The notes under the pieces are model-generated. The model searched no databases, had not been told where the DNA came from, and saw only the letters and a program-made list of their open reading frames with translations. Positions 3,691 to 52,834 of a stretch of DNA of 64,000 nt are shown here, piece by piece. Every line of letters begins with the position of its first letter. The first letter of the stretch is position 1. Source of the DNA: Octopus vulgaris (Eukaryota); the NCBI GenBank assembly GCA_951406725.2, contig OX597823.1:13826001-13890000 (forward strand). The letters are read 5' to 3'. The position numbers were made by a program, and so were the translations under genes.

Positions 3691-3736
3691 GCGACAGATG
3701 TCGACATTTCGCGTTATTTCTGCTCTTCAGTGTTAC
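3691..3736 (-). ncRNA. Minimal type I hammerhead ribozyme motif with canonical core
   Basis: Minus strand reads GUAACA-CUGAAGA-GC agaaauaac GC-GAAA-UGUCGACA-UC-UGUCGC: CUGANGA and GAAA boxes, palindromic stem III, AUC cleavage triplet, stem I 5/6 paired including one G-U. Confidence 0.7.
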
Positions 3737-3796
3737 ATACTCTTTTAATACAATGCGTCTTCAACGAAAGATCACGACTCTATAGCATTTACTAAC

Positions 3797-5416
3797 ACAG
3801 ATACTAAAAGTTTTGAGACTTTTGTTTTAGGAAAGACAGTTATACCTGTACTAGATTATTGTAATTTTATAAAATCATTACAAGCTGATCTGCCAGAATT
3901 TGTTATTCCAGATTGAAGGAAATGGCTATAACACTACTTTGAACACACCCTACAAAATACTGCTTGTCATAGCTAACTAGTTTTCAGTATGCAGTCGGAA
4001 CGTTCGGATTCTCACTATGCAATAAAGTTTTGTGCTAAACTTGGTAAAAGCAGGACAGAAACTTGTGAAATGCTCCAGACAGTTTATAGATCAACTTGTA
4101 TAAGCCGCACACAGGACAAGCAAATCAAGTCCATCGTGATAACCATTATGACCCCCTTTCTGACAGCAAGGGTAGCATCTGTATCCTCTGAGCTCCTTCT
4201 GGCCAGGCGGAGAAAAAAGAGTGCTTTGTGGCGGTTTTGAGGGAGTTCGGACAGAGTTTTTCTCGCAAAAGGCGAGAGAACTCGCCCAGGACAACGAACT
4301 GGTCCACAACTCCATCCTGATAAGAGTTACTTGACAGAGGCGGGAAAAAAAGAGTGCTTTGTGAAAGTTTTGAGAGAGATCGGAAAGAGTTTTTCTCGCA
4401 AAAGGCGAGAGAACTCACCCAGGAAAAACGCATTAGTCCACAATTACATCCTGGTAAGAACTACTTGACAGAGACGGGCATCAAAACTACCCCTCACCCT
4501 CCCTTCAGTTCAGCGTCTGTTTTTCGCTGGCACAGGACAAGCAAATCAAGTCCACCAGGATAATCATTTTGACCCCCTTTCTGACAGCAAGGACAGCATC
4601 TACATCCTCTGGGTTCACTCTAGCCAGACGGGAAAAAAAGAGTGCTTTGTGGAGGTTTTGAGGGAGTTCAGAAAGAGTTTTTCTCGCACCAGGACAACGC
4701 TTCAGTCCACGATTCCATCCTGGTAAGAACTACTTGACAGAGGCTGGTATCAAAACTGTCCTTCACCCTCCCTTCAGTTCAGCATCTGTGATTCCAGTGA
4801 TTTTTTGGTTGTTCACCAAACAGAAGGAGGAGATGAAGGTTTCTGTGACACCTTCATTTTGGAAGATTTCCATGGGGCCTACATGAGGCTGATGGATCGC
4901 TACAACAAATACACTGCAGTCAGAGGATCCTACTTTGAAGGAGATTAGAGTCTTGTACTTATTTAAGAGTAGCAGTATCGCCCGGCGTTGCTCGGGTTTG
5001 TAAGGGAAAATAACTATATAAGAATTTTTAGAGATGTAAAGTATAATAGCCATCTCAATATGGTTAACCACAAAGGGGGTGTGTTACTGTAGCTTTTTAC
5101 GTTCTGAGATTTAATAATAAATTTTTAGAGAGCTACTTCCCTTATATATGCCAAAAATGCATTGAAAATGGGAAAAATTGATGGCAATTTTTTTTTAAAT
5201 CGTAGACTCATCGTAGACGCGGGCTAATACCCAGAAGGGTTCGATATGAATCACGACTATAAGATACCCGGTTTTCGTTAAACTGCACCGCAAAATGTGG
5301 GAGTAGTTAGGAATCTAAATCGTAGGAGACAGACAGCACACAACCTCACTTTTATATATAAAAATTAATAAATGTCTTTCCTGTAAAAGTCTCAAAACTC
5401 TGGAACGTATCTCGTA
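3797..5416 (+). mobile_element. Defective Tc1/mariner (mariner-type) element with TIRs, internal deletion and internal duplications
   Basis: N-terminal HTH YAIKFCAKLGKSRTETCEMLQ at 3989; QDNALVH and PHPPFSS motifs; C-terminal AVRGSYFEGD* ending at 4948. Inverted termini agttttgagactttt..aggaaagaca (~3809-3838) and tgtctttcct..aaaagtctcaaaact (~5373-5399); right end ..tctcgta. Confidence 0.85.
4968..5362 (-). mobile_element. Non-autonomous Helitron-like element nested in the mariner 3' region
   Basis: Minus strand begins TATATATAAAAGTGAGGTTG and ends in the hairpin CCCGAGCAACGCCGGG followed by CGATACTGCTAC (one base from CTAG). No TSD. It separates the mariner stop codon from its right TIR. 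Confidence 0.7.
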
Positions 5417-6059
5417 CATTAAGTGTGTGATATTCTATATAAGTATGCATACATGAATATTTGTATGTATGTATGTATATATGTAGGCATGCTTGTGTGC
5501 ATTTATGTATATATATGTATCTATGTGTGTGTACATATGTATGGAAATATGTATGTATGTATTGTTGTTGTAACTACTGGCACAGTAGCTGAAGCCGTTG
5601 TCACTGCTGTTATTTCTGTAGTTGTTGCTGTTGTTTCCGAGATTATGTAACCACAGATCATTTCTGATGTCAGAACCCCTGCCATATAAACATTTGCAGT
5701 AGTGTCACTAGAGTTGATGCCATCAAGAACGGGAGGTCATATTTTCACCTCCGGCTCAAGGTGTCCTTTCGTATAAGATCAAACAGAATCCATAGTCAAA
5801 GTTTTCTTTATGCTAAAGTTTCTCGTAAATCTTAATTCCTGTTTGTCACTGAACACAATGGCAATTACAGCGACATAAACATGTAACAAAAGTGAAATTT
5901 CATTTTAAAATTACAGTATCGTACGCACGATTTCATACAGTTTTATGGTCGGAGAATAGGCAGAGTGGTTTGAACTTTTCTTTTTATTTTATATAACTGA
6001 TCTCACACTTCTTTCATTTCTTGGACCGCGGTAAGGTTGGGATTCCACATTGAAGGATT

Positions 6060-6560
6060 ATAATCGAACAAATTAACCGCTGTGTTTATTTTTAAAGTCT
6101 GGTACTTATTCTATCGTTCCCTATTTCCGAATCACTAATGTACGAGGACGTAAACAAACAATCAACGGTTGCCAAGTGGACCGATGTTAAGCACCCAAAT
6201 ACTAAAAAAAGGAAAACATATCGACAGATTACCAATGACATGTTTCCGGGTTCAGTCTCACTGCTTGGCAATTTGGACAAGTGTCTTCTGCTATAGCCTC
6301 GAGTCGACCAAAGCCTTGTGAGTGGATTTGGTAGACGGAAACTGAAAGAATCCCGTTGTATATATGTATATATAACAAAAACACAGACGCAAAAACACAT
6401 TTAGTTACACAACGAGCATTTGCGCCTTTTCCGTCCAATAAATTTACTCAAAAGGCAATTGTCGAAATGCGGGGCTATAATTAGAGATACTTGCCTCAGG
6501 AACTGAAACCTCAATCACGAAGTTGCAAAACAAGATTCTTAACCACACTGCTATGCTTCG
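6060..6560. mobile_element. Degenerate nested family A SINE pieces (old minus-strand copy interrupted by a plus-strand head, ~6235-6362)
   Basis: Similarity to the family A copy at 6836-7286 in both orientations. Confidence 0.6.
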
Positions 6561-50175: not shown

Positions 50176-52042
50176 CGCTGATATGTGAGTATGTATATTG
50201 TCAATTGCTTATTGTTAAATCTTGGTGGATGAGAACCAAAAATTGATACTGGCTTTACTTGAGCTCCGAATATGCTACTGGTAGCCATTCTATTCCGTTC
50301 AATTCTTCACATCAACAAAATGAGAGCGTGCCAAATTGAAAACCAATGGCGACTTACAAGCTCAGGGCTGAATTCGTAAATGGTAGCTCAGATTTTAGCT
50401 ATATATGATCACTGCCAAAATACAGATATCTATCAGAACGAACCACGAAACAAGTGGCTAACGATGAGTGCAGATCAAAGCATTGAGAAAACTGACCACA
50501 CTAATTATGACAATTTACATAGATACGATAAAGCTGGCAGTTGGAGAATATGTGGAATTTGAGAAGAAACTATTGCCCGCGTTGTCCTTAGTCGTCAGGT
50601 CTAAGCCAAGGAAAAATACTTCTCTGCACATCAGACTTGAGGCTTTCATAGGTGTTGGGCTGAGAATCGTGCAGCTTTATTGTACAGTAATTGAAAACAG
50701 GTGACATAGGCGTCCAGGAAAAAAAGATGTCCGAGAATGACAGAGAGGACATTCTCTAGGATATGCCAAGCGGTGACTAGAAAGAGTAAGGACAAAATGA
50801 CATGTTCTATGCACCCTGATTTTCCAAATCCTTCTGAGACCAAGTATTTTGTTTATAATTTTGGGGTAGATAAAATAAACTACCATTCCACAGCAGTGAA
50901 TCGGTGAGGTTGTTAATTCATCACTATGAATGTCTTGTGATATTTGTAATATTCGTTCCGAATTCTTGAATATCCTACTTCATGTGCGGCCCGGTTTAAT
51001 ATCATAAATAAATCTTTGGGTGCATCGTGGATTTTACCGTTTCTCTTTGAAGCATTTCCTCCCTTTCTCTCATCAGTCTAGGAAGCCCTGAAACTAATAT
51101 AGGTTCATGGGTGTTACCCTTGCCTCTCTGACCAAACGGTAACAGAAAACAAAAAAAAATTAACAAGACAGGGAAATTCAGACTAATACGTCGGAAATTG
51201 TTATTAAGGACAATCAGAAATGGAAATTACTACAAATCAACGGATGAATCAAACAGACGTTAATGTATCTTTAAATGAAATTTAGAAATTATCCAGATAC
51301 AATGATCTTGAAATGGAAATTAGAATGCGGTGACTGAAAAGACAAACGATTTCTATAATGATACAATTGTTAAATCAAAGTTTCAATCTAGTACTGGGCT
51401 CAATTTAATTTATTAACTTTACCTCCTCAAACCAAGATGAAGCCTTGCGTTTATAAGGTTATTACCATTATTATCATCCTGTTGAGGGTACGAGTCCTCT
51501 GTTCAATCTGTTCTACCGGAGAATTTCATCGTCATTAAAATAGAGTAAATTTGGTTATAAATCTCTCTTCTCTTTATTTTACAGATAATTTTACACGAAT
51601 TTAGAAATTTTCTCAGAATGTCGTTGCCTTGACTCTCTACACGAAAAAGGTTTTTAAAATTCTTTTTACCGTTCCATACTTCACAATTCCGATTGAAAAT
51701 TTCCGCGATTTCAATCCCCAAATCTTTGAATTCGGAGAGTTTTTTTTTTTACCATCTTTACTGAGATATTACTTTGACTTCAGGAAGCCACATAATTTGG
51801 AGTATCTGATTCGGATCTCTTGTCACTTATAATGATGTCAAATCGGTCCCTCAACTTCCGATGCTTTTCATCCTTTCGTGGTCGATTAAAATAAAGTACT
51901 GATCAGCTACTCTGATCGATGTAAACGACTATTTCCTTTCCATCAAAATTATTGACCTTCTACTTAAATCAGAAACCATTATGAACAACGAAACTAATTG
52001 AAAAATAATTAACAGTCGACCGTTAACAATTGCCGCTAGATA

Positions 52043-52420
52043 TGCGCAGGAGTGGTTGTGTGGTAAGTAGCTTGCTAACCAACCACATGGTTCCGGGTTC
52101 AGTCCCACTGCGTGGCATCTTGGGCAAGTGTGTCCCGGGCCGACCAATGCCTTGTGAGTGGATTTGGTAGACGGAAACTGAAAGAAGCCTGTCGTATATA
52201 TGTATATATATATATATAAGTGTGTGTGTTTGTCCCCCTAGCATTGCTTGACAACCGATGGTGGTGTGTTTACGTTCCCGTCACTTAGCGGTTCGGCAAA
52301 AGAGACCGATAGAATAAGTACTGGGCTTACAAAGAATAAGTCCCAGGGTCGATTTGCTCGACTAAAGGCGGTGCTCCAGCATGGCCGCAGTCAAATGACT
52401 GAAACAAGTAAAAGAGAAAG
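52043..52420 (+). mobile_element. Family A SINE
   Basis: Homology to 30615-31003. Confidence 0.9.
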
Positions 52421-52786
52421 AATGTTACTATTGTCATCCGGCATTATATCGTCCTATACGTCCTTCGTTTTAAGATTAGGGGTCACCATCGTAAAGTTTG
52501 ACCATGTATCTGCTTATGTATGTACGTGCATGGATACCGGAAGGATCCACGCATGTATGTTTCCTCTCTCCACACCACTGATGCTGTCCAAAGGAAACTT
52601 CGCAGAATTATTCAAGTTATATAGCTTGGCCTCAATATCGTCATAGGTGTAGCTGTTAGAAAGAAGACAATCAGAAGAGAAGATACATTTCCTCCGACAC
52701 TCAAACAGCTCCACCAGTCCACCGCCATTGATTGATACTTTCTTATCGTCCCCAAAAGGATGAAAGTGAAGGATCGATACAAACAT

Positions 52787-52834
52787 TGGGTATTGACCCG
52801 ATGACGGGTCAATACCCAGAAACTCGAGTCCGTG
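52787..52834 (+). ncRNA. Hammerhead-like motif overlapping a perfect 14-bp hairpin
   Basis: CCGAUGA-cGGGU caau ACCCa-GAAA-CUCGAG-UC with palindromic ACUCGAGU and a GUC triplet. The upstream stem I strand is replaced by an inverted copy (tgggtattgacccg atga cgggtcaataccca). Confidence 0.5.

Follow-up and report, generated by a model that had tools for sequence, protein, structure and literature searches.

Hammerhead ribozyme folds with canonical and variant cores in Penelope-like elements and their likely derivatives in the octopus genome

The stretch of Octopus vulgaris DNA analyzed here (the window; 64 kb, G000:C10:13826001-13890000, on contig OX597823.1 of a host assembly of 2.8 Gb in 227 contigs) is rich in simple repeats and contains six motifs resembling the minimal hammerhead ribozymes carried by Penelope-like elements (PLEs). 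A first-pass annotation of the window had listed these motifs, and all six are present with the positions, cores and palindromic mini stem III that it gave, in the order stem I, core box, stem II, GAAA, mini stem III, NUH and stem I. Core positions are numbered here so that the canonical core reads C3 U4 G5 A6 N7 G8 A9, the alternative with a U3-A8 pair being counted as canonical too. Locus 1 (3656..3750, minus strand) is an old short repeat relic with a type I hammerhead, a canonical core at 3730-3724 and the predicted cleavage residue at 3697. Locus 2 (7731..7926, plus strand) is an element of ~200 bp that ends in (TA)n and carries a U4C hammerhead at 7791-7825, with the core at 7795-7801 and the predicted cleavage residue at 7821. 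Locus 3 (16108..16291, plus strand) is the 5'-truncated 3' end of a Neptune-type PLE and also ends in (TA)n; its hammerhead (16166-16201) has an A6U core at 16170-16176, the cleavage residue at 16197 and, private to this copy, an altered stem II at 16178. In locus 4 two Neptune-type PLE 3' ends stand head to head. The left arm (33735..34176, minus strand) is inverted and has a U3-A8 hammerhead at 33952-33913, the mirror copy described previously, and a tail of ~40 nt that is found on this one arm, whereas the right arm (34177..34594, plus strand) comprises the last 30 GIY-YIG endonuclease codons (34178-34267, 93% identical to the open reading frame (ORF) of the family), a 3' untranslated region (UTR), a hammerhead at 34417-34456 with a U3-A8 core at 34424-34430 and the cleavage residue at 34449, and then (TA)n. 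Locus 5 is also paired. Its left arm (42971..43122, minus strand) is the inverted 3' end and tail of a Hydra-clade PLE in which the junction removes the core box and leaves no whole hammerhead, and its right arm (43125..43260, plus strand) is a 3' end between (TA)n tracts with a hammerhead at 43162-43222 (core 43167-43173, private G8A, cleavage residue 43217). Locus 6 (52787..53000, plus strand) is a copy, truncated at the 5' end, of a retrozyme-like tandem unit of 352 bp and has a U4C core at 52798-52804 and the cleavage residue at 52830; an inverted 14-bp piece (52787-52800) replaces its stem I. The damage to stem I at locus 6 and to stem II at locus 3 is confined to the window copies, the families having these stems intact. 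Parts of the earlier description need adjustment. The motifs had all been placed beside or inside (TA)n tracts, which is correct for loci 2-5 but not for loci 1 and 6, and they had been called independent, whereas loci 2 and 3 share a stem II/III design and are probably related.

A relaxed hammerhead descriptor, written after the motifs had been seen, gave five matches in the window (loci 1, 2 and 5 and locus 4 twice) compared with a mean of 0.12 in 60 block shuffles, none of which reached five. Locus 3 was missed because of its private stem II change, and locus 6 because the 14-bp inversion replaces its stem I, so that it was found only if the stem I requirement was dropped. A stricter descriptor, with positions 4, 6 and 7 free, gave two loci (three hits) in the window, four loci (six hits) in 20 arbitrary 10-kb stretches (200 kb) and 0-1 hits in each of 10 shuffles. 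The unusually high density claimed for the window was therefore rejected, since arbitrary stretches are comparable. A seventh candidate lies at 30123-30068 on the minus strand, with a canonical core, a palindromic stem III, a stem I of 2 bp, an A/T-rich stem II and a microsatellite end, and is either a relic or a chance occurrence.

Each of the six motifs belongs to a dispersed repeat family, numbered here after its locus, and the presence of several PLE or retrozyme-like families is borne out. To avoid selecting for the core, the genome was searched with the exact flanks of each motif and a seven-N core; the resulting counts cover the whole genome, with copies carrying any flank change falling outside, and core tallies of 100 refer to the first 100 places listed per family, counted by hand. 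Element boundaries were read by eye; those from an all-against-all BLAST were confounded by microsatellites and dropped. Families 1 and 4 and the older subfamily of family 5 have a canonical core, whereas families 2, 3 and 6 and the young subfamily of family 5 do not. A link to a PLE reading frame was found for families 3, 4 and 5.

Family 3 comprises 10,253 copies, 8,780 of them with the exact A6U core and 100 with a canonical core. L479 runs from reverse transcriptase (RT) through linker and GIY-YIG endonuclease with CCHH motif into a 3' UTR that is long and rich in pyrimidines, after which come the A6U hammerhead and (TA)n. Both family 3 and family 4 have a CX2-5CxxC linker before a C-terminal GIY-YIG endonuclease with CCHH that follows the RT; both were placed in the Neptune clade by these motifs without a tree of reference proteins, and family 3 was assigned to PLEs by motifs together with tblastn to the family 4 frame. 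When 30 loci were chosen by the family 3 endonuclease protein alone (from 14,916 candidates, 150 of them scored), an exact A6U core stood 350-960 nt downstream of the endonuclease in 24, a damaged core in three and none in three. Similarly, 32 copies collected by their 3' flank only, some from loci fetched for family 3, comprised 24 with an exact A6U core, two with U6 and other damage, two with an internal deletion, one canonical copy and three truncated ones. Of the 100 listed copies 85 have an exact A6U core, and in these position 7 takes all four bases (A 34, C 23, U 23, G 5); the cleavage residue, position 17, varies between A and U. In a comparison of 30 copies, in which the search pattern fixed the stems and left the core free, the other core columns were 0.9-1.0 invariant and position 7 was 0.33; the 3' flanks of these copies had a mean identity of 81% within and 76% between position-7 classes. 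Positions 7 and 17 are those that hammerhead catalysis leaves free. A free position 7 with the other core positions held is what a selected fold predicts, and family 3 is the informative case for selection versus founder effect, as fixation in a clonal family proves little. At several loci (L358, L419, L485 and L500) a single (TA)n tract holds an accumulation of different PLE families, one case being family 2 immediately behind family 3.

Family 4 has 627 copies and is young, with 97-98% identity among the 40 best copies. The U3-A8 core is present in 99 of the 100 listed copies, which supports the suggestion that this pair is compensatory. It is not novel, as the identical core is printed for a Schistosoma mansoni PLE (PMC4209133, Fig. 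S3). The order in L031 is hammerhead, a 492-codon ORF1 overlapping an 869-codon RT and GIY-YIG frame, a second hammerhead and an inverted 3' copy, and the large frame matches Pfam RVT_1 (E 3e-7) and contains a CX4CxxC linker and CCHH. The overlap of ORF1 with the RT-endonuclease frame is in -1 phase (L031:2728-6464; also L005, L281, L391, L392 and L040), and wherever the overlap is contained, in five copies and one relative, it has a six-U run followed by a G/C-rich stretch. This family is likely to use a programmed frameshift of the kind that Fig. 1 of PMC8557442 depicts for some PLEs.

Family 5 was assigned by motifs and by-eye likeness to a published Hydra protein. In L424 a 717-codon frame is flanked by hammerheads with a period of 2.59 kb, and the element agrees with the description of the Hydra clade in the sections of PMC8557442 covered here in having less than 3 kb, a single ORF, RWK and DKT motifs, a CxCx5C linker and no CCHH; L423 has four tandem hammerheads of this family. 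The older subfamily, which matches the window, has 434 copies, and among the 100 listed one canonical core accounts for 75 and the core of the window for three, indicating that the locus 5 core is private decay. The young, ORF-intact subfamily has 3,296 copies, with U4C in 96 of the 100 listed. Hence the claim that the variant cores are fixed rather than decayed holds for four of the five variants, each the majority state of its family, and fails for locus 5, whose subfamily is mostly canonical. Enclosed by the family 5 inverted pair L337/L338 (G000:C1:141718361-141721742) is a piece of ~250 bp from the 5' portion of a Hydra-clade ORF, which suggests template switching during insertion.

For families 1, 2 and 6 a reading-frame link was not found. 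Family 2 has 6,501 copies genome-wide, of which 4,524 carry the U4C core of the window, and position 4 is C in 84, U in 14 and A in two of the 100 listed. The element is ~200 bp long with a sharp 5' end, and an upstream walk, which succeeded for family 3, found that all 37 copies chosen at the 5'-most motif (18 + 19) share nothing upstream and have no linked PLE frame. Beside locus 2, a near-perfect 160-bp hairpin lies between (TA)n tracts at 7976-8138; half of it also adjoins a family 2 copy in L179, and no hammerhead was seen in it. Family 6 has 195 copies, and the 100 listed divide into 62 with U4C (nine from one array), 24 canonical and 14 others. Its unit has a period of 352 bp (nine units in L301, five in L308), contains one type I hammerhead each time, with a stem I of 6 bp outside the damaged locus 6 copy, and is non-coding, with stops in all six frames; in some copies the 5' end wraps into the 3' end of the unit. 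The PLE frames near two family 6 copies (L302 and L158) showed no link to those hammerheads. Since the family carries the same core, the idea that the locus 6 core is a mere junction artefact was rejected. Among the relatives of this family the core is of the U4C or the U3-A8 type. Further hammerhead families outside the window (L425:1081-1410, L398/L481, L429, L437/L482 and L444) have canonical, U4C or U3-A8 cores, and several occur as inverted pairs. For family 1, 15 other copies were scored, which are 76-89% alike over the matched parts and have a canonical core where it is intact; the copies on C1 lie within a 4.5-kb segmental repeat, and a linked PLE frame was not found there. Directly downstream of locus 1 is a C-terminal fragment (3328-3726, minus strand), which resembles part of a non-LTR (long terminal repeat) retrotransposon frame, although Pfam gave no match for 3331-3726.

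The target sites of these families are mostly (TA)n. The majority of copies are truncated at the 5' end, and some are accompanied by a second copy in inverted orientation. (TA)3 follows the 3' end in 26/30, 20/30, 26/30, 19/30 and 10/22 copies of families 2-6, respectively, where 8% is expected by chance, or 14% with the broader search interval applied to family 3. The corresponding numbers with an inverted copy no more than 1.5 kb upstream are 0/30, 0/30, 5/30, 11/30 and 7/22. Every insertion extends 40-190 nt beyond the predicted cleavage site, and in full-length tandems the upstream hammerhead stands ~240-260 nt before the start codon. A census of core positions in all fetched loci, biased to the targeted families, gives U or C at position 4 and A or U at position 6, apart from rare single copies. 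Unrelated lineages with U4C number at least three; in families 2 and 6 and in young family 5 it is accompanied each time by a sister state that is canonical. An origin of U4C as CpG-related decay was rejected because this variant is the majority state.

Taken together, these features make it probable that loci 1-6 are minimal type I hammerhead folds, located at the 3' ends of PLEs (loci 3, 4 and 5) or of their likely non-autonomous derivatives (loci 1, 2 and 6), and that the variant cores still cut, slowly and as dimers. The thousands of A6U and U4C copies would thus likely give rise to slow self-cutting RNAs with letters that textbook hammerheads avoid. In such a scheme two hammerheads in a tandem or read-through transcript would pair via the palindromic mini stem III and cut slowly, freeing the element RNA at the upstream repeat. 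Reverse transcription would need an uncut or re-ligated downstream site, and a weakened core (U4C or A6U) could be tolerated or even favored, provided that the rest of the fold is kept. Cofolding predicted pairing of two copies through stem III for loci 1, 4 and 5, but not for loci 2 and 3, in a calculation that was run without a control and is no measure of activity. For minimal PLE hammerheads, dimer cleavage that is low but detectable has been described (Cervera and de la Pena 2014, PMC4209133), and of the variants here U3-A8 is active and U4C leaves a viroid infectious, A6C also being documented (PMC3088659).

A bolder possibility, which we put forward tentatively, is that octopus-type PLEs have repeatedly retuned the uridine turn, with A6U and a free position 7 (at least 8,780 copies, Neptune-type) and U4C (at least three lineages, more than 7,000 copies, the youngest ORF-intact Hydra-clade subfamily among them) being active, selected forms that would have replaced canonical ancestors since slower or cation-dependent cleavage suits retrotransposition. 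Were this true, most of the hammerheads of this genome would escape canonical descriptors, and the natural sister families would directly test what PLE hammerheads are for.

Several observations weigh against activity of the variant cores or against the element assignments. In family 3 loop II varies as little as the core does, so the conservation may reflect protein binding rather than catalysis, and fixation in families 2, 4, 6 and young 5 could by itself be a founder effect of one master copy. The A6C change cripples Mg-dependent cleavage in other hammerheads (PMC7151607), and Naiad PLEs spread without hammerheads (PMC8557442). Pfam gave no match for the partial family 3 frame of L479 or for the Hydra-clade frame of L424, and the missing ORF link of families 1, 2 and 6 belongs here as well.

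The strongest competing explanation, which we nevertheless consider rather unlikely, is that A6U and U4C cores are catalytically dead and that the fold persists as a structural signal, such as one for RT or endonuclease binding or for priming, with loss of cleavage favored as the template stays intact. This would agree with the extension of all insertions past the cleavage site, with the retention of loop II along with the core, with the excess of the young Hydra-clade subfamily over the canonical one at the level of exact flanks (3,296 versus 434), with the 88 to 1 ratio of A6U to canonical cores in family 3 and with the success of PLEs that lack hammerheads (PMC8557442). A dead core, however, would not be expected to vary as family 3 does, at positions 7 and 17, with G5, the 3-8 pair and A9 retained along with the GAAA box and NUH, nor does it sit easily with the restriction of positions 4 and 6 seen in the census or with the activity that U4C keeps in vivo in a viroid (PMC3088659).

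It is still less probable that the variants are neutral hitchhikers, each arising once in an amplified master copy of an element in which the hammerhead has no role. The near clonality of families 4 and young 5 and the canonical-like minorities in families 2 (14 of 100 listed with U4) and 6 (24 of 100 listed canonical) would fit such an origin, but A6U persists across subfamilies with 76% mean flank identity while position 7 takes all four bases, U4C occurs in at least three unrelated lineages, and joint changes of U3 and A8 are seen in family 4 as well as in family 6 relatives. That the motifs are chance look-alikes in a repeat-rich window is hardly credible and is already refuted by the family and ORF context, since every one of the motifs has a repeat family that conserves it, three occupy the place that hammerheads have in PLEs and no shuffle reached the window count, even though the descriptor was relaxed after the fact and an Rfam scan of the window showed no hammerhead family among the best 150 of 418 matches.

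Comparison with published systems, as described in the sections of the cited sources covered here, places most of these features among known traits. The hammerheads in the pseudo-LTRs of PLEs (PMC4209133) are likewise of type I with a short stem I, an extra base after A9 and a palindromic mini stem III, occur mostly as solo truncated copies or as opposite-strand pairs 100-700 bp apart, and show U3-A8 covariation, the S. mansoni(4) core being that of locus 4. In contrast, no U4C or A6U is present among the Fig. S3 motifs covered, whereas here these are the majority state in families of thousands of copies. Neptune-clade PLEs (PMC8557442) share with families 3 and 4 the C-terminal GIY-YIG with CCHH, the CX4CxxC linker, (TA)n targets, an inverted 5' copy and a tail at one end, and with family 4 the overlapping upstream ORF; families 3 and 4 differ in their A6U and U3-A8 cores, with the caveat that their clade was assigned by motifs. 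Inverted copies, tails and a (TA)n bias are known PLE traits (PMC8557442). Hydra-clade PLEs share with family 5 the small single-frame design and motifs noted above, the absence of CCHH and the (TA)n targets, as well as a stem III of 4 bp closed by a loop of one base, which several motifs of File S2 (PMC8557442) also have. The File S2 motifs are all canonical, whereas the young family 5 subfamily is U4C. An octopus Hydra family, Hydra-1_oBim (also spelled Hydra-1_Obim), is included in Files S1 and S2 of PMC8557442, and by eye its protein is similar to that of one element in this genome. The hammerhead of Hydra-1_oBim differs from that of family 5, which is thus another family. Non-LTR retrozymes (PMC7229834; bioRxiv 10.64898/2026.07.22.740005) resemble family 6 in having a non-coding tandem unit of 150-450 bp with one type I hammerhead each, and in having copies with the wrapped 5' end described above; family 6 differs in its U4C majority core and in also forming inverted pairs. 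Among natural core variants (PMC3088659; PMC7151607), reduced or cation-dependent activity is on record for U3-A8, U4C (viroid) and A6C (phage), but they are described as rare cases, and A6U is unmentioned in the passages covered. Octopus PLEs have been annotated in PMC13282606, the main-text passages covered being without mention of ribozymes. A literature search on octopus, Penelope and hammerhead gave no report of family-fixed A6U or U4C, nor were these found in PLEs in the literature searched; Lunse et al. 2017, which is likeliest to list them, figure panels and bioRxiv supplements were outside its scope, so absence from print is not established.

The association of PLEs with hammerheads, the U3-A8 core, dimer cleavage, inverted copies and (TA)n relics are thus already known, and what merits further work is the A6U core that is fixed in a family and has a free position 7, together with the recurrent U4C. 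The purpose of PLE hammerheads is called unclear in PMC8557442, and the octopus genome provides matched canonical and variant pairs within one lineage in thousands of copies. Should A6U and U4C prove to cleave, the consensus of natural hammerheads would have to be broadened, and the counts from canonical searches would be too low. Should they not, the PLE families with the greatest amplification here would owe none of that success to cleavage, having lost it beforehand, which would point to a structural or dispensable role.

The window also contains repeats apart from the hammerhead families. A miniature inverted-repeat transposable element (MITE)-like element at 12358-12890 has terminal inverted repeats of 169 nt at 99% identity around a 195-nt spacer and lies beside (TA)n. 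At 38390-39091 on the minus strand is a C-terminal fragment of what looks likely to be a non-LTR retrotransposon frame, with a weak zf-RVT match (E 0.002). Tandem repeats of 184 bp, in a partly inverted arrangement, occupy 9541-10937 and 31541-32210.

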